Assembly (NCBI GenBank): GCA_048941015.1
Contig: JBHLNZ010000076.1
Location: 1-13,526 of the forward strand
Reading direction: 5' to 3'
DNA: 13,526 bases
Origin: Promethearchaeota archaeon
Lineage (GTDB): Archaea > Asgardarchaeota > Lokiarchaeia > Sigyniarchaeales > SOKP01
Below are positions 1 through 13,526 of this stretch, piece after piece; positions within the stretch are counted from its first letter, which is position 1; each line of letters opens with the position of its first letter. Made by a program: the position numbers and the translations under genes. The notes below the pieces were generated by a model, which saw only the letters and a program-made list of their open reading frames with translations, did no database searches and was not told where the DNA came from.

Positions 1-1100
1 TCTCCATCTGGGCTGTATCCACTTCCTGTAACTTTAAAAGTTGAACCATTAGTCCATACATATTGGATACTCATTTGATTTTTAGTTAAAGTGCCAGTTT
101 TATCCGAGCATACTACGCTTACTCGACCTAAACTGTCAACCGAAGCAAGATTTCTTATTATAACGCCATGATGAGCCATAGTTAATACTCCGGTCAATAA
201 TATAATTGTTACTAAGAGTGGAATGTTGATAGGTAGTAGATCCATAGCAGAATTGAGACTTGTAACAATATCAAGTTCACCAGTAGCACCCCATACAATC
301 ATTAAAATCACAAACCAAAATCCAATAACAATTAATCCAAGCCATTTACCAAAATTATTCATTTTTTCTCGAATGGGAATTTCACTCATTCCAGCCTCTT
401 CTAAACCCTGCGAGATTTTTCCAATTTCGGTATCTTTCCCTATTTTTACCGCAATGGCAGTCCCATTCCCAGTAGTTATATAAGTGCCATAAAATACCAT
501 ATTATAACGATCTGATATTGGTATCTCCTCTTTAATAATTGCATTCCCTATTTGCATTTTCTTTACTGGCTCACTCTCTCCTGTCAAAGAGGCTTCGTTT
601 ATTTCAAGATTTGAAGCTTGAACAATTCTCGCATCTGCAGGAATTTTATCACCTTGCGTAAGTACTAATAAATCTCCAACAACTACATTTTTCGTTGGTA
701 CGTCCAATTTTTGTCCGTTTCTTATTACTGTTGTAGTGGGGGCGGTCATTTCTCTTAAGGCATTTAGCTTTTTTGTTGCTCGATATTGTTGAATAACAGC
801 AACTGCACAATTTAATGCAACGATGACTAACGTAAGAACTATAAATGTTAAATTTCCTTGACCTCCAAAAATAGCAGCTAAAAATAAAATTAAAGCTCCG
901 ATTAAATATATTACAATTAGCCAATTAAAAAGAGGAGCTAAGTAAATCTTAATAAATCCTTTAGAAGCTTTAGGAATTTCATTATATCCATAAATTTCTA
1001 AACGTTTATTAGCCTCTTCTCTTGATAAACCAGAGGAAGGATTAGTTTGAAATTTACTAAAGATTGTATCTAACTCTAAATTATAATAAGTCTCAACCAT
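1..1100 (-). CDS. P-type ATPase (P2A-like scaffold, atypical M4 motif PINIP); N-terminal 366 codons only, continues beyond the left edge
   Basis: Not in the ORF track because there is no stop inside the window. Manual translation from ATG at 1100: MVETYYNLELDTIFSKFQTNPSSGLSREEANKRLEIYGYNEIP...GDKIPADARI...NEASLTGESEPV...DTEIGKI...AMDLLPINIPLL (219..233)...VVCSDKTGTLTKNQM (DKTGT at 90..104). It has the A-domain TGES and the phosphorylated Asp (D333). Confidence 0.95.
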   Translation of the reverse strand, partial: MVETYYNLELDTIFSKFQTNPSSGLSREEANKRLEIYGYNEIPKASKGFIKIYLAPLFNWLIVIYLIGALILFLAAIFGGQGNLTFIVLTLVIVALNCAVAVIQQYRATKKLNALREMTAPTTTVIRNGQKLDVPTKNVVVGDLLVLTQGDKIPADARIVQASNLEINEASLTGESEPVKKMQIGNAIIKEEIPISDRYNMVFYGTYITTGNGTAIAVKIGKDTEIGKISQGLEEAGMSEIPIREKMNNFGKWLGLIVIGFWFVILMIVWGATGELDIVTSLNSAMDLLPINIPLLVTIILLTGVLTMAHHGVIIRNLASVDSLGRVSVVCSDKTGTLTKNQMSIQYVWTNGSTFKVTGSGYSPDG

Positions 1101-1258
1101 AAGAGATTCTCCCGCGACTTTTTACATTTTTTATTATTAATTTTTCTTAAAATGGAATGAATATAATAAATAGACTATAAGAATACTTATTTTTATTTTA
1201 TTTCTTTTTTATATAAAAAATGAATTATCAACAGGTAAATGATTAAATACGACTCAGA

Positions 1259-2056
1259 TTATTTCTTTTTTTTCAATTTAGCCAAGATTTTTCCCCAATC
1301 TATATAAACCAATAAGAATAAGATTATAATAGTTGCTGCCCAAATTAAGGAACTTTGTATAAGATCTAGTGTAGTGCTAGGAGGAATAATTCCAGATCTT
1401 GCAGCTTCGAGATTAATACCAAATAGTCCAAAAAGAAAGTTCCCTAGTGATGTATCTGCAAACCAGATAGGCAGAGCACTACAAAGAAAACATAGAACAA
1501 ACTTTCCAATAAAACAGAAAAATAATGCTTTTATGATACTATATTGAGCAAGACCAAGGACAATTAAAAATGCATCATCAGGGAGTGGAGTCGCAGCAAA
1601 TATAAATATTAGGAAGGGCGCCCATCCTTTCTCAACATAACTTTTCATGCGTTGAATACTTTCAGAATCTCCTATAATTCCTTTTGATCCTTTTCCTATT
1701 AACCATGCTGTTGTTTCACCGATACTCGCACCTAATCCCCCAACCAATCCTAATAGTATAGGATTTACTCCTGGTATTATCGCAGATATCACAATTAAAG
1801 CAATAGTATAAGGAACTGGAAAAATTATAGTAAAATTTCCAAATATACTGATTAGAAATACTCCAATATATATTCCCCAATCACCAAATTTAGTATAAAA
1901 CCACATAACAGCATTAGCAAGCCATTGTCCAAAATTGATGTTAAGAAATGCTAAAATTATGAATAAAGCAATGATTACACTGATAAATATCAAGCCACCG
2001 TATTTCATAATGAAACTTTTTTTTATCTCTGTTTCACTTTTTTGTTCTTGGTTCAT
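1259..2056 (-). CDS. DedA/VTT (SNARE-associated Golgi protein; VMP1/TMEM41/YqaA-like) family membrane protein
   Basis: 265 aa and highly hydrophobic. It has two re-entrant-loop type Pro motifs (GNFTIIFPVPY and FIFAATPLPDD), plus GGLGASIGETTAWLIGK and FFCFIGKFVL segments typical of the DedA superfamily core. Confidence 0.8.
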   Translation of the reverse strand: MNQEQKSETEIKKSFIMKYGGLIFISVIIALFIILAFLNINFGQWLANAVMWFYTKFGDWGIYIGVFLISIFGNFTIIFPVPYTIALIVISAIIPGVNPILLGLVGGLGASIGETTAWLIGKGSKGIIGDSESIQRMKSYVEKGWAPFLIFIFAATPLPDDAFLIVLGLAQYSIIKALFFCFIGKFVLCFLCSALPIWFADTSLGNFLFGLFGINLEAARSGIIPPSTTLDLIQSSLIWAATIIILFLLVYIDWGKILAKLKKKK

Positions 2057-2092
2057 AATATTCCCAAAATTTTTTGTTATCTTTTATAAGAT

Positions 2093-4936
2093 TCAAAATT
2101 TTATATTTTTAATTCTCGCAAAATATTTTACTATTTCAATCCCAAAAATACCTGGTAAAGCGAATAAGATGCATAAAAGCCAATCTGTTCCACTAAGAAA
2201 CATAAAATTGATTTGAAAATTCAAACCAAATACATCATTTATAAAATAATTAGTCACATACGAGAAACTAATGAATAAAATATGCAATGCTAAAGTAAAT
2301 AAACTAACAACCAATAATGATAATTTAAATTCTTCTCGGATACTTTTAATTACAGATTTGTTTGGTCTCCTAAATGACCAAATGAAATTAGTTTCAGCGA
2401 TATATAGGGTTGTAATAAACATTGTTCTCGCTTTTTGAGCTATTAAATCATTTGGAGTAGAACCTATTGGGATATAACTAATTTCTGGATTTAAATTCCA
2501 AGAATTTAATGGAAATAGTCCTCCCAAAGTTAATTGTAATATTAATACTAAACCTAAACCCATTAAAAATGCCTGAATCAGTAGCAAAATCCATGTATTT
2601 CTATTTAATAATTCTTCTTGATCATGCGGGGAATCTTTCATTATATCTAAAGGATATCTATCTATTACTAAAGCTAAAGATGGAAAAGAGTGGACAATTC
2701 CAAAGATATAAAGATGCTGCCAATCTGAACTGAATAATTCAAAAGCTGGTATGAATTCATAGGTAAAGAAAATTAGAGCTTCCATTATGTTCAAACAAAT
2801 GAAAAAATAAATAATTACACGGATTTTTGCAAAGAGGCCTCTTCCAACTTTTACTCCTTCGACAATTGAGGTGAAATTATCATCAGAAATGACCATGTCT
2901 GCTGTTTCTTTCGCAACATCAGTACCAGTTATTCCCATTGCTATGCCCGCATTTGCCAGCTTAAGCGCTAAAGCATCATTAATTCCATCTCCAGTCATCG
3001 CACAGATTCGATTCTGCTTTTGATAATTTTCAACAATTATTTCTTTATCAGAAGGAGCAACTCTTGCAAATACAGAAACTTTATTAAAATCTTCTAGATT
3101 TAGACTCGAAATCTGATTTCCCTCAATAACTAAATCACCTGGTTTATAAATTCTCATTTGTGCTGCAATTGTTTGAGCAGTTGCGGGGTGATCTCCTGTA
3201 ATCATAACTACTTTTATACCACCAGATTCACACTCTTCAACAGATTCTTTCACTCCTAACCTCGGAGGATCCAGTATTGAAAAAAAGCCTAAAAAGATTA
3301 GATCTTGTTCAACACTCTCTCTTTTAATATTGTTAAAATGATCTAGGTTTTTGTAAGTTATTGCTAAAGTTCTATATCCTTGATTTGCTCGTGTTTGGAT
3401 AAGGTTTAGTATTTCAGCTTTCTTTTTATTATTAAAATTTTGAACTTTCCCATTTATTTCAATTTTGGATGAAATTTCAAGCACTTGTTCTGGAGCCCCT
3501 TTAGTAAATGCATAGATTGCTTCAGAATCCTCATTATGTTTACAAATAGTTGTCATTTTTTTAAGTTCTGAGCTAAATGAGAATTCTTTAACAAATTGAT
3601 ATTTACTTTTAATATCATAAGTAATATAACCAGCTTTCTCAGCCAAGACTAAAAGAGATGCTTCTGTTGGTGAACCTAATGCTTTCCTTATAGCCATTTC
3701 CTTTCTATCTTTTACTCGGACTTTTACATCTTCATAAATCAGTCTTGCATTGTTATTTAATACACTAGAATCAATAAATCTTAGAAACGTGGCATCATGC
3801 TGTAAGGATATTTTCTCACCATTATTCATTATCATCCCTTCCGAATCATATCCAGACCCAATTACAGTGTATTCGACATCATTAATCCAAAATTTTTCTA
3901 CAGTCATTTCATTTTTAGTAATAGTCCCAGTCTTATCAGAGCAAATTACAGAAACCCTTCCGAGAGATTCAATCGCTGATAAATTTTTAATAATAACCCC
4001 ATTTTGAGCCATATTCAGAACACCTGTTATTAGAACGAGCGTGGTTAAGATTGGCAAATTAATTGGCATAATATTCATAGATCTCAAAATAGAGCGTGAT
4101 ACTGCCTGACTAATAAATGCTCCGAAAAATCTGCCTTCAATACCTAAAACTGCTAATTTATAGATTATCAATATTGTTAAATTAACAACAACGATAATTC
4201 CGAGTATATAACCTAGCTTATTGAGTTTTTTTGTAAGTGGTATTTCTTCAATACTTCCCATTTCATTTAATTGATTTGAGATTTTACCAATTTCAGTTTT
4301 AACTCCGATATTCGTAACTAAAGCTTTCGCTCGGCCAGTATATACATAAGTACCCATAAATAGCATATTAGATTGCTTTTGAATTGGTATATCTTCTTTC
4401 TTTATTAGAACACTATTCTTTTCTACAGGTTCACTTTCTCCCGTTAGTGGGGCTTCATCAATGCTTAAATTTACAGCATCAATAATCCTTGCATCAGCAG
4501 GGATTTTATTCCCCTGTTCTAATAATAGAATATCTCCTGAAATCAACTCTCTAGTAGGTATCTCAAACTGAGTTCCGTCCCTTATCACTGTTGCTTTTAA
4601 TGCAGCAATCATTCTCAGTGATTCCAAAGCTTTCTGTGCCCTAAATTGTTGGATAATAACAGTCAATGAATTTATAATAACTACTGTAAATGTTATTACA
4701 GTTGACCCTGGAGAACCTAATATTAAAACGAGGGTTCCAGAAATAATTAAAATAACAATTAAAAAATTAAATATCGGAGCTAAGTATATTTTCCATAAGG
4801 ATTTTTTAATCTTTGGAAGCTCATTATAACCATATTTTTTATATCTAAAATTTAGTTCAGAAATAGATAATCCATGATTAAGATCTGTTTGAAATTCATG
4901 TACCAAGTCTTTTATTGATTTATTATAGTAGTTCAT
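2093..4936 (-). CDS. P-type ATPase (P2A-like scaffold, atypical M4 motif PINLP); substrate uncertain
   Basis: 947 aa with GNKIPADARI, LTGES, CSDKTGTIT (D334), KGAPE, DPPR, MITGDH, FARVAP and MTGDGINDA motifs and about 10 TM segments. M4 reads MNIMPINLP instead of IPEGLP. Confidence 0.95.
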   Translation of the reverse strand: MNYYNKSIKDLVHEFQTDLNHGLSISELNFRYKKYGYNELPKIKKSLWKIYLAPIFNFLIVILIISGTLVLILGSPGSTVITFTVVIINSLTVIIQQFRAQKALESLRMIAALKATVIRDGTQFEIPTRELISGDILLLEQGNKIPADARIIDAVNLSIDEAPLTGESEPVEKNSVLIKKEDIPIQKQSNMLFMGTYVYTGRAKALVTNIGVKTEIGKISNQLNEMGSIEEIPLTKKLNKLGYILGIIVVVNLTILIIYKLAVLGIEGRFFGAFISQAVSRSILRSMNIMPINLPILTTLVLITGVLNMAQNGVIIKNLSAIESLGRVSVICSDKTGTITKNEMTVEKFWINDVEYTVIGSGYDSEGMIMNNGEKISLQHDATFLRFIDSSVLNNNARLIYEDVKVRVKDRKEMAIRKALGSPTEASLLVLAEKAGYITYDIKSKYQFVKEFSFSSELKKMTTICKHNEDSEAIYAFTKGAPEQVLEISSKIEINGKVQNFNNKKKAEILNLIQTRANQGYRTLAITYKNLDHFNNIKRESVEQDLIFLGFFSILDPPRLGVKESVEECESGGIKVVMITGDHPATAQTIAAQMRIYKPGDLVIEGNQISSLNLEDFNKVSVFARVAPSDKEIIVENYQKQNRICAMTGDGINDALALKLANAGIAMGITGTDVAKETADMVISDDNFTSIVEGVKVGRGLFAKIRVIIYFFICLNIMEALIFFTYEFIPAFELFSSDWQHLYIFGIVHSFPSLALVIDRYPLDIMKDSPHDQEELLNRNTWILLLIQAFLMGLGLVLILQLTLGGLFPLNSWNLNPEISYIPIGSTPNDLIAQKARTMFITTLYIAETNFIWSFRRPNKSVIKSIREEFKLSLLVVSLFTLALHILFISFSYVTNYFINDVFGLNFQINFMFLSGTDWLLCILFALPGIFGIEIVKYFARIKNIKF

Positions 4937-5062
4937 GATAGAAATTTCTGATTAAATAATTTTTAAGTAAAATTTGTACAGATTAAAACAATAATAATAA
5001 TTATAGATTTAAAACTTATTAAAACTATAACCTTTTTAATTTTGATAAAATAAAATGTCTAG

Positions 5063-6025
5063 TTAAATCTCAAGAGATTGAGGATCTCCTAATAGTTCTT
5101 TTAAAAAGTTAAATTTTTTTCTTATCGTAGTACTTGAAAACTTACTACTTTTTTCAATTAGACTCTGAGTAAAAATCTTACGATTATCTAAAGTTTGACC
5201 TATATAATAAATTAATCCTGCCGTAAATGCTTTGTAATTAAAATTTTGAATCTGCTCATAAGGTATTTTATTTAATATTTTATCTACTAATAATAGCATT
5301 TCAATTTTTAATTTACTATACTCATTCTTATCGGAGAGATGATCTTTTATTATTTCATAAGAAATATTATTCAAGTCTTTTTGGAAAACAATTTTTATTT
5401 TATTTTTTATCTCTTCTTCTATTTCTTCAGTTGTTTTGAACTTTTTTAGCATTTTCTCAGTCCTTTTGACTTTGAGCATCGCATTATTCAACATTTTTTT
5501 ATTAATTTTATGTCCTAATTCTCTTGCTGCTTTTATAAATTGCTCAATACGAATATTTGTAGTGTCTTTTATCTCCATCCAGACAATTGCCAGAAAAATT
5601 ATAACCATATTCTGGTAGGTGTGTCTATGATATTTATTATATTTAAGATAACGTTCTTTAATTTCTTGATATTTAACGTTATCGATATTTAAACCAATTC
5701 TATAGCTCTTTAATAATTCTATCGTTTTTTTCTGTTCAGAAAAGCTGCTCTGATAATCTTTAAACCATTTATCTAGAGTTTTTATCTTCTCATATTTTTG
5801 TTTAATTTTAGGATCTTGAATAGCTTTAGAATCTCCAAGTTTTATTCTTCTTTCATAATCTATTTGAGAATCTGATAAAAAATCTGATGCAGAACTCTCT
5901 TCAAATGCGATATTATCTTCAAAAATTAATCCACAATCTTGACAAACAAGAAAGCCAGAATCTTGCTTTATGTTAGAATGAGAACAAGTTGAAATATCCT
6001 TTTTTTCTTTATTCTTATTACTCAA
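5063..6025 (-). CDS. Divergent transcription initiation factor IIB (TFB)-like protein
   Basis: TTG start. N-terminal Zn ribbon C14-x-H16...C28-x2-C31-G (CQDCGLIFE). The C-terminal segment AFTAGLIYYIG...TQSLIEKSSKFSSTTIRKKFNFLKE resembles the second cyclin repeat/HTH of TFB. The middle is strongly diverged. Confidence 0.7.
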   Translation of the reverse strand: MSNKNKEKKDISTCSHSNIKQDSGFLVCQDCGLIFEDNIAFEESSASDFLSDSQIDYERRIKLGDSKAIQDPKIKQKYEKIKTLDKWFKDYQSSFSEQKKTIELLKSYRIGLNIDNVKYQEIKERYLKYNKYHRHTYQNMVIIFLAIVWMEIKDTTNIRIEQFIKAARELGHKINKKMLNNAMLKVKRTEKMLKKFKTTEEIEEEIKNKIKIVFQKDLNNISYEIIKDHLSDKNEYSKLKIEMLLLVDKILNKIPYEQIQNFNYKAFTAGLIYYIGQTLDNRKIFTQSLIEKSSKFSSTTIRKKFNFLKELLGDPQSLEI

Positions 6026-6167
6026 AAATAACTCAATTAATTAATTTTTTTTATTATCAATCGCTATTATTCAAAAAAAATAATATGTTAAATTTTTATT
6101 TAAATTTTTATAATAATTCATTTAAATTATTATTATTGTAAATTTAAAAAAGTAAAACTGAGAAATA

Positions 6168-6749
6168 ATGAATCAAAAACTTATTTTAAAATATCTTAAA
6201 TTATTCGGTTTAGGTTTTATAATTGTATCTTTAATTGAATTTATTGATATTATTTTACTGAGCACAGTCATTAGAATGAATATGGATGGTGACAATTTAT
6301 CTTTAATACAAGTATTATTTAACACAGGGTTAATAACAATAGATGGTGCATTTTTATGGATAGTTTTGATGATAATTCCTTTTATTTTCATTGCGTTAGG
6401 TTTTATCTTAATTAGTTTAGCCAAAAAAGAGAATTTGAATAGATCTATTCTTTCAAAAGATATCTTACTTATTGGGCTATTTCTTTTAGTAGGTTCTTTT
6501 ATTAAAATGGTCTATATCATATTATTAGCTAATATCAAATTGAACTTGGGAATTACTGTTGAATTACAACAAGTAATGTATAATCCTCTAATTACACCAT
6601 TTATAGGTGCTGTGATGTGGATTTATATCTATGGTACAACAAGTGGTTATTTGATTTCTGGTTTGATTTTTGGAGGGGTTGGATTAAAATGGATTTTGAT
6701 AATCGAAAAAGAAAAACCTCTTAAAATTAATGATAACAGTGCGAAATAG
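6168..6749 (+). CDS. Hypothetical membrane protein (about 4 TM)
   Basis: 193 aa ORF with ATG start filling the gap between the two TFB genes. It has four long hydrophobic segments and no recognised motif. Confidence 0.8.
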   Translation: MNQKLILKYLKLFGLGFIIVSLIEFIDIILLSTVIRMNMDGDNLSLIQVLFNTGLITIDGAFLWIVLMIIPFIFIALGFILISLAKKENLNRSILSKDILLIGLFLLVGSFIKMVYIILLANIKLNLGITVELQQVMYNPLITPFIGAVMWIYIYGTTSGYLISGLIFGGVGLKWILIIEKEKPLKINDNSAK

Positions 6750-6779
6750 AAAAAGAAAAGAAAATAAGAAAAAATTTCT
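6750..6779 (-). terminator. Putative archaeal oligo-T terminator for tfb
   Basis: The 30-bp gap between convergent genes reads on the minus strand as successive T tracts (TTTTTTCTTATTTTCTTTTCTTTTT) directly after the tfb stop codon. Confidence 0.45.
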
Positions 6780-7706
6780 TTAGAATAATTTACTTTTTAT
6801 TTGTTTTGCCCTGCTTCTTAATGTAACTTCTGTTATTTTTGCTACATCAGCAACGAGTGATTGAGTTTTACGAGAACCATGGTCCTTAGCGGAAATATAA
6901 ATACAAGCTGCAGCTAAACCTTTGGGATCTTTTCCAGTACGCTTTAAGCCATTTTCAGAAGCTTTTCTAAGCATATCGATGGCACACTTTTGAATGTTCA
7001 TTGGAAGGTTTAATTCATTACCAAATCTAAATACTAAACTTTCGGCTGTAATAGGTTGATAACGTAATCCTAATTCAGGTAAAACTTCCCTGATAATCAT
7101 TGCTAAACTTTTATGTACTGTTCTTCTTGGGGTTAATGAAGCCTCACATACTTCATCTAGTAAGCGAGGAAAGTCATGTACTCTAATTGCAGCATATAGG
7201 GAACCTGCGATAAATCCATTAATAGATCTACCCATAGTTAACTTTTTCTTAGCTACTATACTATAAACTTTCCAAGCAGTTTCAGAAATATATTCTGGGA
7301 TATTTAACTTAGATGTTAGCATCTTTAATTTAGGTTTGGCTTCCCAGAAATTTCTCTCAATGCTTGAAATAAGTGAATTTTGAATTTTTGATAATCTTGA
7401 AAATAATGCTTGTTCTTTTGGACCTATTGATTTCCCTTTAGAGTCAGTTTTAGTACTTGGTAGCATAGTACGAGGGCCAAAATCTCTCCATCTTGGTTCA
7501 GTTCTCCTCCTACTTTGGATTTCTTCTACCGTATATGCTCGTCTCTCATTACCTACATATGTTCTTTCGAAAATTACTCCGCAATTCAAACACACTTTAT
7601 TACCATCACGCTCTTCAATACATGGATCTTCGCAACACTCACTCTGGGGCAAATTTTCTTCAACATTTTTATTCCGTAGCAATAGATCGCGATAGTTATT
7701 ATTCAT
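6780..7706 (-). CDS. tfb: Transcription initiation factor IIB (TFB)
   Basis: 308 aa. Zn ribbon (CCEDPC...VCLNCG), B-reader-like ERRAY..EE..RRRT, first cyclin repeat (LTMGRSINGFIAGSLYAAIR) and second repeat (GKDPKGLAAACIYI...TQSLVADVAKITEVTLRSR). Confidence 0.95.
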   Translation of the reverse strand: MNNNYRDLLLRNKNVEENLPQSECCEDPCIEERDGNKVCLNCGVIFERTYVGNERRAYTVEEIQSRRRTEPRWRDFGPRTMLPSTKTDSKGKSIGPKEQALFSRLSKIQNSLISSIERNFWEAKPKLKMLTSKLNIPEYISETAWKVYSIVAKKKLTMGRSINGFIAGSLYAAIRVHDFPRLLDEVCEASLTPRRTVHKSLAMIIREVLPELGLRYQPITAESLVFRFGNELNLPMNIQKCAIDMLRKASENGLKRTGKDPKGLAAACIYISAKDHGSRKTQSLVADVAKITEVTLRSRAKQIKSKLF

Positions 7707-7975
7707 TTTTAATCACAGGGAGTATGATAATGGTAATAATGTCTTCTTACCATGATAATTTTGATATAAAATTAGACTTTATTACACTTTTAATAATATC
7801 ATATTATCCAAGTCGCATTTATAAATCTTTGTCTCAAAATTTAAAAATTTTGATATAATTATCCCATTAGGATCCCATTTTTATTAATTTGTTCATCTAA
7901 ATATTAAAAGTATTAAAAAAATGATTAATTACATAAGAAAAAATGAAAATAAAATTATGATTAAAGTGATTTAAT

Positions 7976-8488
7976 TTGGAATTTTATGATGTTATAAAAA
8001 AAAGGAGAAGCTATCGCTTCTTTAAATCGGAAATGCCTCAAGAGGAAAAAGTCAACAGAATTTTAGAAGCGGCACGATTAGCGCCTACATGGGCTAATAA
8101 ACAAGGAATGCATTACATAGTAGTAAAGGATAAAGAAGTAGTGAAAATGGTTTGGGAAGCAATTGGTCAAAAGCAGAAGTTTGCTGATTGTCCTATATTT
8201 ATAATAGGTGCAATTGCTGAATCAGGCTCTGGAGTTAATCATGATGAAAAATATTATCCAGTTGATTTTGGAATATGTTTTGAACATTTAATATTAGCTG
8301 CAACTGCTGAAGGATTAGGTACATGTTGGATAGGATGGTTTGATGAGCAAAAAATTAAAAAAATTCTTTCGATTCCTGCGAAATATCGAGTCTTAGGGAT
8401 TACTCCTATAGGATATCCTCTCAAGCAGAAAGGAGAAGTAGAGGATCGAAAGCCTCTAAATGAGTTTGTACATTATAATAAATTCTAA
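7976..8488 (+). CDS. Nitroreductase family flavoprotein
   Basis: TTG start, 170 aa. FMN-binding motifs IKKRRSYRFF and ARLAPTWANKQ, plus LAATAEGLGTCWIG and a C-terminal IGYP...RKPL. Confidence 0.92.
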   Translation: MEFYDVIKKRRSYRFFKSEMPQEEKVNRILEAARLAPTWANKQGMHYIVVKDKEVVKMVWEAIGQKQKFADCPIFIIGAIAESGSGVNHDEKYYPVDFGICFEHLILAATAEGLGTCWIGWFDEQKIKKILSIPAKYRVLGITPIGYPLKQKGEVEDRKPLNEFVHYNKF

Positions 8489-8558
8489 TATCTTTTCTAT
8501 AAATCGTTTTTAAAGAATTAGAAGTAAATATAAAATAATTCCATATTTTATTCTATTT

Positions 8559-10289
8559 ATGAAGATCATTCGTATTAATTTAAGTTCAAGTTCAACAAAG
8601 ACTGAAGAGATAAAACAAGATTCAAAGTATTTTTTATTAGGAGCACGAGGTTTGAGTTCTCAAATCGTTTATGATGAAGTTCCACCAGACTGTAATCCTT
8701 TAGATAGTGAAAATAAACTTATTTTAGCAAATGGCTTATTAGCAGGAAGTTCTTTTCCTAATTCGGCTCGTACTTCTGTAGGAAGTAAAAGTCCATTAAC
8801 AAATGGTATAAAAGAAGCAAATGTAGGAGGAAGACCAGCAATGATGCTGGCAAGACATGGGATACGAGCGTTAATATTAGAGGGGAAATCCTTAGATCTA
8901 AAAATTATTATTATTAATCAAGATGAAATTCAAATATTATCTGGAGAAGAATATAAAGGATTAGGGAACTACAGCTTGCATGAAAAACTGAAAGCAAAAT
9001 ATGGAGATAGGATTGGAATTTATTCAATTGGTCCAGCAGGAGAGTATTTAATGAAATCTGCTACTGTTGCTGCTAATGATTTAGAAGGATTTCCCAGTAG
9101 ACATGCTGCTAGAGGGGGATTAGGAAGTGTAATGGGCTCTAAAGGAGTAAAAGCTATCATTTTAATTCCCCCGAAAGATTCAAAAATTAAAATGCATGAT
9201 ATAAAAAAATTTAAAGAAGTTGTTGGTCCATTTGCAAAAACTTTAGCTCAAACAAAACAGACCTTTTCTATTTTTGGGACTCCTTTGATGATGAAAGCAA
9301 TGAGCAGTTATGGTGGAATACCTACTAAAAATTTTGGAATGGGTTCATTTGATAAAATCGAAAACATTTCAGGAGAAAAACTTCATGAAGTTGTAGTTGA
9401 ACGAGGGGGAAGGAAACGATTAGCTTGCTGTCCAACTTGTGTAATCAGATGTTCAAATTATATTGTTGATGAGAATGGGAATCATATCACTTCGAGCTTA
9501 GAATATGAAACAATGGCACTTAATGGATCAAATCTTTTAATTGACGATATTGATAGTCTTGCTTATATAGATCATTATTGTGATGATGTTGGTATCGATA
9601 CTATTGAATTTGGAGGTACCGCAGGTGTCGCAATGGACTGTAGGGAGATTAAATGGGGAGATGCTCAAGAAGTCATTCGGATATTAGATAAAGAGATAAG
9701 AAATAACACTGAAGTTGGAAAATTGTATGGGAATGGTGTAAAAGTTATCGGTGAGAAACTCAGAGCAAAAAGAGTACCACAAGTTAAAGGACAAGGAATT
9801 TCTGCTTATGATTGTAGAGTTTTTAAAGCAATGGGCGCTACATATGCTACCTCACCAATGGGAGCGGATCATACAGCTGGAGCAGCTATTGCTGGAAGAG
9901 TTCCTAGTCAACATAAAGACTATGGTGAACTTACTGAAAATGATAAAAAATTAGATTTGTCTTTTGAACTTCAAGTATATACCGCAGTTATGGATTCTAT
10001 GGGGTGTTGTTATTTTATAGGTCCTAACTATGAGAACATGGAGATTGTCGCAAAAGCAGTAAATGCAATGTATAATTTAGATTTAACACGTGAAGATATC
10101 ATTAATATCGGAAAAATGATCCTAAGAACCGAAATAGAGTTTAATAAAAGGGCAGGTATTACTCAAGATGTAAATGATGTTCCAGAATTTTTCAGAAAAG
10201 AACCCTCATCTCCAAAAGATTTGACTTTTACCTTTGAAAAACAAGAATTAAAAGAGTTTTGGAATAGATTAAATAATCATACTTTCTGA
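8559..10289 (+). CDS. aor: Aldehyde:ferredoxin oxidoreductase family protein (W/Mo-pterin, 4Fe-4S)
   Basis: 576 aa with SKSPLTNGIKEANVGG, SIGPAGE, AARGGLGSVMGSKGVKAI, the 4Fe-4S motif C-x2-C-x3-C (CPTCVIRC), EYET, CDDVGIDTI, GADH and the fourth cluster Cys in DSMGCC. Confidence 0.95.
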   Translation: MKIIRINLSSSSTKTEEIKQDSKYFLLGARGLSSQIVYDEVPPDCNPLDSENKLILANGLLAGSSFPNSARTSVGSKSPLTNGIKEANVGGRPAMMLARHGIRALILEGKSLDLKIIIINQDEIQILSGEEYKGLGNYSLHEKLKAKYGDRIGIYSIGPAGEYLMKSATVAANDLEGFPSRHAARGGLGSVMGSKGVKAIILIPPKDSKIKMHDIKKFKEVVGPFAKTLAQTKQTFSIFGTPLMMKAMSSYGGIPTKNFGMGSFDKIENISGEKLHEVVVERGGRKRLACCPTCVIRCSNYIVDENGNHITSSLEYETMALNGSNLLIDDIDSLAYIDHYCDDVGIDTIEFGGTAGVAMDCREIKWGDAQEVIRILDKEIRNNTEVGKLYGNGVKVIGEKLRAKRVPQVKGQGISAYDCRVFKAMGATYATSPMGADHTAGAAIAGRVPSQHKDYGELTENDKKLDLSFELQVYTAVMDSMGCCYFIGPNYENMEIVAKAVNAMYNLDLTREDIINIGKMILRTEIEFNKRAGITQDVNDVPEFFRKEPSSPKDLTFTFEKQELKEFWNRLNNHTF

Positions 10290-10299
10290 TTTGAAAAGT

Positions 10300-10320
10300 T
10301 TATCTTATTTTTTTTAATTC
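10300..10320 (+). terminator. Putative oligo-T terminator after aor
   Basis: T-rich tract (TTATCTTATTTTTTTTAATTC) 10-30 nt after the aor stop, in the gap facing the convergent marR gene. Confidence 0.4.
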
Positions 10321-10404
10321 TATTTAATTCTAGCTAAAGTAATTTCACATTAGTACAACTAGATTAAAGAGAATGATTACAGGAACTCATAGTTAAATTG
10401 TCCT

Positions 10405-10905
10405 TTATTTTATATCAGGTTTCAATGAATCAAATAATTTTTGGAGTAATCCTAAAAGCATTTTAATATCAAATTCATCAAGACTTTGACAACAATTATT
10501 TAAGGAATTATCCAACTTATTTGATAATTTTTTAGCCTCAATCCCTTTTTTTGTTAGTTTAATCAAATTTTTTCTTCGATCATCTTGACTCTCTATTCTT
10601 TTAATTAACTTATTCTTTTCCATCGTATCAATAATTCCAGTAATAGTTGATTTAGAACAAGAACATCCTTTTGCTAATTCAATTTGACTTAATTCATCCC
10701 TTTCCCAAAGTTGACGTAAAATTAAATATTGAGCAGGTGTCATATTCATTTGTTGAATAGAATTACGTTGAATTCTTTCAACCCGCTTATTAATCTTGTA
10801 TATTAATCTAAAAGCTTTATTAAAACTCTCAGGATCAGAACCATTTCCACAACATGTAGATGATTTCTCATTACTTATGATGTCTTGATTTGTTTTATTG
10901 CTCAT
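10405..10905 (-). CDS. MarR family transcriptional regulator, cysteine-rich
   Basis: 166 aa winged-HTH signature: MTPAQYLILRQLW...SQIELAK...KSTITGIIDTMEKNKLIKR...DRRKNLIKLTKKG. It carries six Cys in three pairs. Confidence 0.93.
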   Translation of the reverse strand: MSNKTNQDIISNEKSSTCCGNGSDPESFNKAFRLIYKINKRVERIQRNSIQQMNMTPAQYLILRQLWERDELSQIELAKGCSCSKSTITGIIDTMEKNKLIKRIESQDDRRKNLIKLTKKGIEAKKLSNKLDNSLNNCCQSLDEFDIKMLLGLLQKLFDSLKPDIK

Positions 10906-10928
10906 AATTATTAATAGAGCTATAAAAA

Positions 10929-10990
10929 ATTTAAAGGTTTGGATCCGAATGGTTCGGATCAGAACCTTTAAATAGTTCGGATCCTTACTA
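10929..10990. promoter_or_regulatory. Divergent marR/arsM promoter-operator: 45-bp inverted repeat plus three copies of palindrome GGTTCGGATCCGAACC
   Basis: Arms 10929..10949 and 10953..10973 are reverse complements at 19/21 positions. Boxes lie at 10936..10951 (13/16 to consensus), 10951..10966 (15/16) and 10974..10989 (12/16). TTTAAA TATA-like elements sit at both ends of the inverted repeat. Confidence 0.8.
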
Positions 10991-11022
10991 TCTATTATAA
11001 TTAAAAATTATAAGTGATTAAA

Positions 11023-11847
11023 ATGAGAAGTGAGGAAAAAATAAAAGAAATTGTAAGAAAACAATATTCTAAAGTTGCCTTATCAAATAATCAAAATGAA
11101 TTTTCTGGTTGCGGATGTTCTAGTGATAAAAATGTTCTTATTAGCAAGGTTATTGGTTATAGGGATGACGATTTTAATGCCGTTCCAGAAGGGTCAAATC
11201 TGGGTTTAGGTTGTGGTAATCCAATCGCTCTTGCATCTCTAAAGGAAGGTGAGACTGTTATTGATCTTGGTTCTGGAGCAGGTTTTGATGCATTTTTGGC
11301 ATCAAAAAAAGTGGGAAAAACTGGTAAAGTAATTGGTGTCGATATGACTCCTGCTATGATTTCAAAGGCAAGAGAGAATGCAAATCAAGGAGATTTTGAA
11401 AATGTCGAATTTAGACTAGGGGAAATTGAGCATTTACCGGTTTCTGATGGTATAGCAGATATTATAATCTCGAATTGTGTTATTAATCTAGTACCTAATA
11501 AAAGAGAAGTATTTAAAGATGCCTTCAGGGTATTAAAGCCAGGCGGTAGGTTAATGATTTCTGATATTGTTGTTACAAAAAAACTTCCCGAATTTATACA
11601 GGAATCTATAGAAGCATACACTGGATGCATTTCAGGGGCAATTTTAAAAGAAGACTACATAAAACTGATGGAAGAGAGTGGTTTTCAAGAGGTAAAGATA
11701 CTAGGTGAAGTAAATTATCCCATAGATCTTTTTATGTATAGCAAAGAGATTAATGAAATTATAGAAAAGAACAAAATATCTCTCAAAGAATTGAAGGAGA
11801 TTGCAAGAACAATAGTTAGTGTAAAAATTAGTGCTTATAAACCCTAA
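11023..11847 (+). CDS. arsM: Arsenite S-adenosylmethionine methyltransferase
   Basis: Motifs GCGC, NLGLGCGNP, SAM-binding VIDLGSGAGFD, VIGVDMTPAM, IISNCVINL, RVLKPGGRL and YTGCISGA. The catalytic Cys set is present (C33/35, C67, C155, C205 in ORF-track numbering). The in-frame ATG at 11023 is preferred over GTG at 11014. Confidence 0.93.
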   Translation: MRSEEKIKEIVRKQYSKVALSNNQNEFSGCGCSSDKNVLISKVIGYRDDDFNAVPEGSNLGLGCGNPIALASLKEGETVIDLGSGAGFDAFLASKKVGKTGKVIGVDMTPAMISKARENANQGDFENVEFRLGEIEHLPVSDGIADIIISNCVINLVPNKREVFKDAFRVLKPGGRLMISDIVVTKKLPEFIQESIEAYTGCISGAILKEDYIKLMEESGFQEVKILGEVNYPIDLFMYSKEINEIIEKNKISLKELKEIARTIVSVKISAYKP

Positions 11848-11917
11848 AATATTTAATATATTTTTTTATAATTATTTTTTATTTTTAAGGACAAAAATAG
11901 AGAATGAAGTTTTTAAA

Positions 11918-12850
11918 GTGATAGGCGTTAATGAAAAGAGTCAAAATAATAAGAAAAGTAGAGAAAGAGATAAATTTAATGATATTACTTTTAATAAATC
12001 TATATTAGATATTATAAATGCACGTTTTTCAATCAGAGCATATCTCGATAAACCACTGAATCTAGATCTGAAAAAAAGCATAAGGAATATCCTAACACAT
12101 CCTAATATAAATAGTCCATTCAGAGAAAAAGTGGCAAATATTAGATTTAAACTGATAAATTTTTCAGAATTAGATCAAGACATAAATTTAAAAACTAAGA
12201 CAATTGGAGGGATATACGGAGCACATGATTATATTGTTGGAGCTATGGAGCAATCCGAATATGATTTTGAACATTATGGATATGTTTTTGAAACAATTAT
12301 TTTAAAAATGACTGAACTAAGATTAGGGACATGTTGGTTAGGAGGCTTTTTTAATCGAAAACTTTTTGCAGATAAAATTCAAAAGCGTCCAAATGAGATT
12401 ATTCCCGCAATAACACCTGTTGGAACACCTGATTATGTTAGATTAAAAGCTGGATTTGGAATGAAAACAAATTTTGATCGTATTAGACTTCCAGTGTCGC
12501 AACTTTTCTTTGAAGGAGATTTTACAAATCCAATCAATTTTATAAGTAAAGATCCTTATTCCGTATTACTTGAAATGGTCCGAATTAGTCCTTCTGCTAG
12601 TAACTTACAACCATGGAGGATAGTCAAAGATAAGAAGGAGAATATTTTTCATTTTTATACATTATCAACTAGAGATAGAGTTGGGCTTATTTATAATAAT
12701 TTTCGGCGAATTGACATAGGAATCGCTGTATGTCATTTTGATCTTGCATCGAAATTTCTAAATCTAAAAGGAAACTGGGAATTTAAGCAACAAATTATTC
12801 CATCAATAAAATATCTTAAATATATCATAAGTTGGAGTGAAAAGAATTAA
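11918..12850 (+). CDS. Nitroreductase family protein (two-lobed type)
   Basis: IINARFSIRAY, LKMTELRLGTCWLGG and ITPVG, followed by a second lobe with VRISPSASNLQPWR and RIDIGIAVCHF. The ORF is open from 11831, but 11848..11890 looks like T-rich intergenic sequence, so GTG at 11918 is the likelier start. The start remains uncertain. Confidence 0.85.
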   Translation: MIGVNEKSQNNKKSRERDKFNDITFNKSILDIINARFSIRAYLDKPLNLDLKKSIRNILTHPNINSPFREKVANIRFKLINFSELDQDINLKTKTIGGIYGAHDYIVGAMEQSEYDFEHYGYVFETIILKMTELRLGTCWLGGFFNRKLFADKIQKRPNEIIPAITPVGTPDYVRLKAGFGMKTNFDRIRLPVSQLFFEGDFTNPINFISKDPYSVLLEMVRISPSASNLQPWRIVKDKKENIFHFYTLSTRDRVGLIYNNFRRIDIGIAVCHFDLASKFLNLKGNWEFKQQIIPSIKYLKYIISWSEKN

Positions 12851-12963
12851 AAGAAGTTTAACCTATTTTCATGGATTTGTGTAGAATAAAATTTTTGTAG
12901 ATTTAATTAATATTTTAAGAAAATATAACTAAAAACCCTTTTCAATTTAAAACAAATTCAATT

Positions 12964-13521
12964 TTAAACATATCGCAACAAACCTTTTCTCATCATATAA
13001 TATTCTATTACAAGAATTAGAATAAATCCAATACTAATAAGAAAAATAGGAGTTAAACTAGTCACTGGTCCGAATAAAATCCCTAATTCACTAAATCTAC
13101 AAAATATACTCAATATTCCATATCCAACGCCTCCTAAAACGGCAATAATCTTCTCTTTCTTAAAAATAGAAATAGAAAAATGCCAACATGCAGTAAGACA
13201 AAATGTAGATATCAATATTAAAATAAATAATATTGCTATTGATAAATTAGGACTCAAAAGTAGCCCAAAGACAATAAAAATTATAAAAGAAACATATAAT
13301 ACGATTGAGATTAATTTTAAATTTTCCTTAAAATAATTAATTTCTAATTTTATAAATATACTCAATAAAATCCAGGGGATTTCAATCAATAAGGCAATAA
13401 GAGACACTGTCCATGCATCTAATATAAAAAGATCCAGAAATATTGAAGAAAATAGACCTATTAAAATAAGACATGCGCCAGCAAGTCTTAAAAGCCCTAT
13501 TTTTTTTATTTCTATCCTCAT
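12964..13521 (-). CDS. Hypothetical multi-pass membrane protein (about 6 TM)
   Basis: 185 aa, almost entirely hydrophobic helices, with no recognised motif. The start lies near the window edge. Confidence 0.75.
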   Translation of the reverse strand: MRIEIKKIGLLRLAGACLILIGLFSSIFLDLFILDAWTVSLIALLIEIPWILLSIFIKLEINYFKENLKLISIVLYVSFIIFIVFGLLLSPNLSIAILFILILISTFCLTACWHFSISIFKKEKIIAVLGGVGYGILSIFCRFSELGILFGPVTSLTPIFLISIGFILILVIEYYMMRKGLLRYV

Positions 13522-13526
13522 ATTAT

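Follow-up and report, generated by a model that had tools for sequence, protein, structure and literature searches.

Two P-type ATPases, termed here ATPase-A and ATPase-B, are encoded in an archaeal genome on either side of a gene for a membrane protein of the DedA superfamily, and neither of them contains the glutamate of the PEGL motif in the fourth transmembrane helix (M4). The question raised by this locus is what such pumps carry across the membrane. The stretch of DNA that was analysed, designated the window, comprises 13,526 nucleotides of a Promethearchaeota archaeon (GenBank assembly GCA_048941015.1, contig JBHLNZ010000076.1, positions 1 to 13,526). An earlier, sequence-only reading had proposed that the three genes form a lipid-translocation module, in which two flippases flank a scramblase. 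The present analysis favors a different answer. With a probability of roughly 0.6, both proteins are functional pumps of an apparently undescribed archaeal clade derived from the P2A-type ATPases, with a substrate other than Ca2+, for which a small cation accommodated in a rebuilt site is the most likely candidate.

The motifs of the phosphorylation cycle (TGES, DKTGT, TGD and GDGxND) are all intact, and the segment LTGESEPV is kept in the orthologues of both pumps. Inspection of the sequence bore out the earlier observation that the M4 PEGL glutamate is missing in both ATPases and that a PIN[LI]P motif lies 43 residues before DKTGT, the distance from the M4 proline to the aspartate being the same in ATPase-A and ATPase-B. 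In a HMMER alignment, Ile292 of ATPase-A falls on the glutamate of the PE(A)L motif of Listeria LMCA1, which corresponds to SERCA E309, and His749 falls on the aspartate of the sixth transmembrane helix (M6). Judging from these alignments, Ca2+ site II has lost its side-chain ligands, as the positions of E309, N796 and D800 are all changed. In site I, the equivalents of N768, E771 and E908 persist, and the site appears to have been rebuilt around a histidine, with the M4 asparagine as a new element.

This pattern is strongly conserved. Among 27 orthologues of ATPase-A and 25 of ATPase-B, residues P291, N293, P295, N716, E719, H749 and E848 are invariant. The E309 position is occupied by I/F in the A orthologues and by I/L in the B orthologues, and the N796 position by F/Y and S/T/G, respectively. 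Across 28 diverse members of the clade, E719 and H749 are again invariant, and N293 and E848 occur in at least 90%. The E309 position varies over the clade (I, F, L, V or W), with V, F or W in its deeper members. The membrane core of the clade thus has the appearance of a polar binding site that has been remodelled.

On this basis we propose that ATPase-A and ATPase-B are ATP-driven pumps, the substrate of which would not be Ca2+. It would be bound at a polar, charged site formed by the M4 Asn, the Asn/Glu pair of the fifth helix (M5), the M6 His and the Glu of the eighth helix (M8). The substrate may be a transition-metal or other small cation, or alternatively H+, in which case the histidine could provide a built-in counter-charge. 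The DedA protein, which resembles YqaA, would be an accessory neighbor that was lost in many relatives, and its functional coupling to the pumps is not part of the proposal.

The extent of the clade was assessed with HMMER, by scanning 1.8 billion cluster representatives in full and inspecting the best 150 matches. About 35 of these best 150 combine the M4 pattern P-[IVFLW]-N-[LIF]-[PVI] with an M6 histidine where the PEGL-type proteins have N..TD. In a 135-row FastTree phylogeny with the genome's own P3A ATPase as outgroup, 31 representatives, 28 with an M4 P-x-N motif and three with another M4 lacking Glu, form one branch that is separate from the PEGL-type proteins, with an SH-like support of 100 and a stem of 0.37. 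ATPase-A and ATPase-B are tandem paralogues of about 43% identity, and the duplication that produced them appears to be old, since they are found in separate deep subclades of the tree.

The named members of the clade belong to Promethearchaeota, Helarchaeota and Odinarchaeota, together with one contig labelled Korarchaeota (GCA_012974725.1, clade member P0142). The latter also encodes a small GTPase of the Arf/Ras/Roc family; its label is doubtful, and an Asgard contig may have been misbinned or misnamed. Searched with a profile of the clade, 237 of the 251 genomes sampled from the phylum yielded strong matches, many of them above 1200 bits, at a threshold that may also admit PEGL pumps. In a search of species-representative genomes with deep members, 79 of 80 loci lacked a P-x-N M4 (77 had only the PE type) and PINLP/PINIP was found in a single locus, from Promethearchaeota; the degenerate patterns used in this search are generic P-type motifs. 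A look-up in the ESM Atlas yielded nothing beyond the protein's own cluster, rich in Promethearchaeota, and generic cation ATPases. The literature searched on Asgard P-type ATPases, flippases, FUPA and the origins of the P4 type contained no account of the clade, an absence that is no proof; as far as this literature goes, the proteins with M4 P-x-N and M6 His represent an undescribed archaeal branch of the P-type ATPases, derived from P2A.

By profile, tree and fold, the pumps are P2-like and not P4-like. Among the NCBIfam models, ATPase-A scored highest with the PMR1-type pumps (441 bits), followed by SERCA-type (428), P2D (406), PMCA (387), Na/K (339), P3A (322), P3B (303), P5 (242) and P4 (106). 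All of these scores are below the respective cut-offs, and only the generic P-type model TIGR01494 was passed (257 bits versus 62.3). The best matches in PDB by sequence are LMCA1 (E 3e-123), SPCA1 and SERCA. The 50 best Foldseek matches of an AlphaFold2 model of ATPase-A (pLDDT 82.9) are all P2 pumps, those to SERCA, SPCA1 and LMCA1 having TM-scores of 0.6-0.8.

Like the P2A Ca2+-ATPases (SERCA, SPCA1/PMR1 and LMCA1), the pumps possess the Cation_ATPase_N, E1-E2, N and P domains and Cation_ATPase_C in the same order, ten predicted transmembrane helices, the TGES and DKTGT motifs, the M5 N/E pair and the M4 scaffold P-x-x-L-P followed by TT..L..G. Unlike them, the clade has a hydrophobic residue for the M4 Glu, an invariant Asn for the Gly that follows it and F/S..(V/L)H for N..TD in M6, together with an invariant M8 Glu. 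The C-terminal half of the membrane domain is divergent, such that Cation_ATPase_C is matched with 57 bits compared to 155 bits in the canonical paralogue.

The same genome contains several other P-type pumps. A canonical P2A pump with PEGLP and N..TD is encoded on contig C49 (7056-9881, + strand), and a P3A H+-ATPase on contig C23 (3222-5708, + strand; 984 bits versus a cut-off of 615.5). Three additional matches of heavy-metal or Kdp-like type are located on contigs C123, C62 and C143. The P3A copy, like the plant AHA2-type enzymes, is an ion pump that lacks the M4 glutamate; it reads PVALP at this position. A missing M4 glutamate is therefore not diagnostic of lipid transport, a hydrophobic residue at this position being compatible with the transport of cations or protons, and within the clade the residue varies. 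ATPase-A itself reached only 322 bits on the profile on which the true P3A copy scored 984. In P3A pumps the proton site uses an M6 Asp, compared to the His of ATPase-A.

The strongest of the alternatives, which we nevertheless consider unlikely, is that ATPase-A and ATPase-B are P4-like archaeal flippases of lipids or lipid carriers, which set membrane asymmetry with the DedA protein as scramblase or recycling partner. In a broader form, which we rate no higher, the whole clade would consist of P2A-derived lipid or lipid-carrier translocases, independent of or ancestral to P4, and DedA would be a partner in some Lokiarchaeial lineages. The resemblance to the P4 flippases (ATP8A2, Drs2 and Dnf1) lies in the hydrophobic, often Ile, M4 position with a small polar residue directly after it (PINL compared to PISL) and in the loss of the classical Ca2+ ligands of M6, including N796 and D800. 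The details differ, however: the hydrophobic residue of the clade is not fixed (I/F/L/V/W) and is also found in the genome's own P3A proton pump, an invariant Asn stands in for the Ser of PISL, and the second M4 Pro of the P2 type is retained. The pumps have TGES and not the DGET of P4, no P4 structure is present among the top 50 fold matches, and the membrane core retains a conserved Glu, His and Glu. On the P4 profile TIGR01652 (cut-off 431), the score of ATPase-A carries no signal, because the ordinary PEGLP paralogue scores alike (101 bits); deep members of the clade reach 113-126 bits. The P4 partner CDC50 (PF03381) had no match in the genome, which is 95% complete, in a search whose controls, all prokaryotic, gave no match either and so provided no positive control.

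The flippase interpretation also draws on the DedA protein, since scramblases and undecaprenyl-phosphate flippases are found among the members of this superfamily (PMC10127716, PMC8077175). Assignment of the middle protein (P0002) to the superfamily, as originally proposed, appears sound. Its own match to VTT_dom (PF09335; 29.1 bits, E 1.5e-6) is below the Pfam gathering score of 33.9, but all 30 of its aligned homologues match VTT_dom alone (best E 2.9e-10), and PF09335 is assigned to nearly all of its homologues in precomputed Pfam data. The names given to these homologues by NCBI and the Joint Genome Institute (JGI) are YqaA family protein, VTT domain-containing protein and membrane protein YqaA with SNARE-associated domain. 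In hhalign comparisons with E. coli paralogues, all of them weak, YqaA ranked first (E 0.0043 over 98 columns), followed by the COG0398 members YdjZ (0.11) and YdjX (0.33). No match in PDB was obtained with the model of the protein at E ≤0.001 or with its sequence, PDB containing no DedA structure.

The YqaA/COG1238 subfamily to which these names point weighs against the flippase interpretation. YqaA/COG1238 was judged unlikely to flip undecaprenyl phosphate (Todor, Herrera and Gross 2023, PMC10127716); its function is unknown, one member has been tied to indium resistance, and the eukaryotic VMP1 and TMEM41B are nearest to COG0398 and not to COG1238 (PMC10127716). Members of YqaA/COG1238 share the VTT domain, the only Pfam match of the homologues of the middle protein, and are described as lacking basic residues at the second re-entrant loop. 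In the middle protein an acidic PLPDD segment (residues 157-161) is located where this loop would be expected, although the position is putative. In length the two proteins differ: E. coli YqaA has 142 residues, compared to 265 in the middle protein, which has extra N- and C-terminal helices. Four more distant YqaA-like homologues were found in contexts unrelated to the pump locus. In three Asgard genomes (loci L049, L051 and L052, around positions 4250-7840 of each), more distant YqaA-like VTT proteins of 43-48% identity occupy a different, apparently stable context, a conserved row in which CBS-domain, double-zinc-ribbon and VTT genes adjoin PHO4/PhoU.

The conservation of the neighborhood was examined in a sample of 27 related loci, with counts given per informative loci. 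The conserved block consists of TFB, a divergent small open reading frame, a TFB-like gene, ATPase-A, ATPase-B and a GNAT gene. The gene order claimed for the module holds in relatives as far as the two pumps are concerned, as ATPase-B follows ATPase-A in all 26 informative loci, but in only about half of the close relatives for DedA, which was found at 14 of the 27 loci (13 times between the pumps and once upstream of ATPase-A). Of the loci informative for the other neighbors, 23 of 24 have the TFB-like gene upstream of ATPase-A and 20 of 24 have GNAT downstream of ATPase-B; GNAT is therefore a more constant neighbor of the pumps than DedA. Mapped onto the ATPase-A tree, the DedA pattern requires at least four gains or losses, and the losses took place without a replacement orthologue: in five genomes, including two complete chromosomes, the locus lacks DedA and only paralogues of 30-37% identity occur elsewhere. 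Around six distant members of the clade, no VTT gene was called within 6-7 kb, nor was a tandem ATPase partner. In locus L034 the DedA gene is upstream of ATPase-A and not between the pumps, and in locus L040 about 2 kb of extra sequence (9097-11133) separates it from ATPase-B; its position is therefore mobile within the neighborhood. What stays constant is the A-B pair, to which the DedA gene is a dispensable, accessory neighbor rather than an obligate partner. Taken together with the P2-like profile, the TGES motif, the conserved core Glu and His and the probable YqaA/COG1238 affiliation of the DedA protein, this leaves the proposed module of flippase plus scramblase without support.

Several points weigh against our own interpretation. 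The case for a cation derives from the conserved Glu, His and Asn residues, and polar residues are to some extent retained in the core of P4 flippases as well. A hydrophobic E309 position and the loss of N796 and D800 would be expected of a lipid pump too. The FastTree phylogeny included no named P3, P4 or P5 references except the P3A outgroup. Finally, where DedA is present, it is 71-76% identical and keeps its place between the pumps, and some functional link with them may exist in the DedA-bearing lineages. On balance, a small cation is favored over a lipid as the probable substrate: because two conserved Glu residues and an invariant His are situated in the membrane core, a cation or proton site would be expected, and a lipid groove fits less well.

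The constancy of the GNAT gene suggests another substrate, namely an organic cation such as a polyamine, pumped by P5B-like enzymes and acetylated by the GNAT product; this is a slim prospect. The best sub-threshold NCBIfam matches of the GNAT protein are indeed amine N-acetyltransferases, and the conserved acidic and aromatic residues of M5, M6 and M8 would be well matched to an amine with a positive charge. These matches are, however, far under their cut-offs (PseH, 70 bits versus 93; spermidine N1-acetyltransferase, 64 versus 218), the M4 motif is not the PPALP of P5B, the P5 profile gave only 242 bits, no polyamine genes were seen nearby, and the neighborhood may be mere inherited synteny of related genomes. 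The GNAT gene (Acetyltransf_3) of the present genome is located on contig C128 (locus L011, 11763-12356, - strand), 26 bp downstream of ATPase-B, and is followed by DUF362 and DUF3795 genes.

In the pumps called single-site, such as LMCA1, SPCA and PMCA, site II is the sole Ca2+ site. That ATPase-A and ATPase-B are ordinary P2A exporters of Ca2+ (or Mn2+) with a slightly unusual site, as suggested by the JGI name "Ca2+-transporting ATPase", by the nearest profiles and structures and by the retained M5 Asn/Glu pair and M8 Glu of site I, is very unlikely, given that every side-chain ligand of site II is changed, that D800, common to both Ca2+ sites, is a His, that the scores are far under all Ca2+ equivalog cut-offs (TIGR01522, 441 versus 798; TIGR01116, 428 versus 703), and that a separate canonical PEGLP/N..TD pump is encoded on contig C49. 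The earlier warning that automated annotation as Ca2+ ATPases would mislead was accordingly well placed with regard to the name, but the flippase identity supposed to lie behind it found no support.

Pumps of this kind appear to be present in most of the Asgard genomes sampled, where the annotation given is that of a Ca2+ ATPase or a generic cation ATPase. A survey of Asgard transporters cited universal putative "Ca2+ ATPase" orthologues in favor of eukaryote-like Ca2+ signalling (PMC7997004). If these orthologues are the clade described here, the inference would need re-examination, because its proteins would be without a Ca2+ site. A P2 scaffold in which site II has been erased and site I rebuilt around a histidine would represent an unexplored solution among the P-type pumps, and the identity of the substrate would add a new specificity class. 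Were the substrate a lipid, a minority reading on the present data, the clade would bear on the origin of the eukaryotic flippases, and with DedA as a true partner the Asgard archaea would possess an ATP-driven system for membrane asymmetry.

The positions of the pump genes, their motifs and the adjoining TFB-like gene are listed in Table 1.

Table 1. Coordinates of the genes and motifs of the pump locus within the window.
Feature	Position	Strand	Remark
ATPase-A	2093..4936	(-)	Open reading frame of 947 aa; five P-type ATPase domains (Pfam)
ATPase-A, A-domain TGES	4433..4444	(-)	P2/P3 type, not P4 DGET
ATPase-A, M4 motif P291-I-N-L-P295	4052..4066	(-)	PINLP
ATPase-A, DKTGT phosphorylation motif, D334	3923..3937	(-)	Motif read
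ATPase-A, M5 N716-I-M-E719	2780..2791	(-)	Equivalents of SERCA N768 and E771
ATPase-A, M6 His749	2690..2692	(-)	SERCA D800 position
ATPase-A, M8 Glu848	2393..2395	(-)	Equivalent of SERCA E908
VTT/DedA-superfamily membrane protein, YqaA-like	1259..2056	(-)	Open reading frame of 265 aa
ATPase-B, N-terminal 366 aa	1..1100 (frame 3..1100)	(-)	Runs off the window start
ATPase-B, M4 motif P-I-N-I-P, residues 290-294	219..233	(-)	PINIP
ATPase-B, DKTGT	90..104	(-)	Motif read
Divergent TFB-like Zn-ribbon protein	5063..6025	(-)	Weak TFIIB Zn-ribbon match

The list of open reading frames gives the three genes as co-oriented, with gaps of 36 bp (ATPase-A to DedA) and 158 bp (DedA to ATPase-B), exactly as in the sequence-only reading. 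The truncated ATPase-B contains only the two N-terminal P-type ATPase domains in Pfam. Contig C17, which begins with the window, shares an exact 77-bp overlap with the end of contig C128; positions 1-77 equal C128:20156-20232 of the same assembly (G000), an overlap typical of assembler k-mers. Joining of the two contigs yields a complete ATPase-B gene of 957 residues. In two of the related loci the ATPase-B frame is longer (L017:11777-14887 and L039:11088-14174; 1037 and 1029 codons from stop to stop, compared to 962-989 elsewhere), and tblastn revealed about 35 additional residues in each, at positions that differ between the two proteins.

Over 120 homologues with an identity of at least 69% were retrieved. 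Those with names are from Promethearchaeota, Lokiarchaeota and other Asgard archaea, and one is labelled bacterial. The names support the earlier suggestion of a probable Asgard archaeon as the source organism and would place it in Promethearchaeota/Lokiarchaeia.

The three intergenic regions are extremely AT-rich, each ATG is preceded at about 25-30 nt by TATA-like stretches, and a run of T follows the DedA stop codon. In a genome of about 30% G+C, such spacers would not be decisive for or against co-transcription. The TFB-like gene lies 126 bp upstream of ATPase-A in the same orientation and, from its recurrence in the related loci, appears to be part of the conserved neighborhood; its product would be at most a possible regulator of the pumps. 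Among the 27 related loci the TFB-like proteins are 58-75% identical and the TFB proteins 72-92%. Also upstream of ATPase-A are a small open reading frame without a family (6168-6749, + strand) and the canonical TFB gene (6780-7706, - strand), an order retained in nearly all of the 27 loci.

The remainder of the window (7976-13521) contains two genes of the nitroreductase family and an aldehyde:ferredoxin oxidoreductase gene (8559-10289), none of them linked to the pump finding. A MarR regulator (10405-10905, - strand) is divergent from a SAM methyltransferase (11014-11847), neither being linked to the pumps, and an open reading frame without a family, likewise with no link to them, occupies positions 12964-13521 on the - strand.

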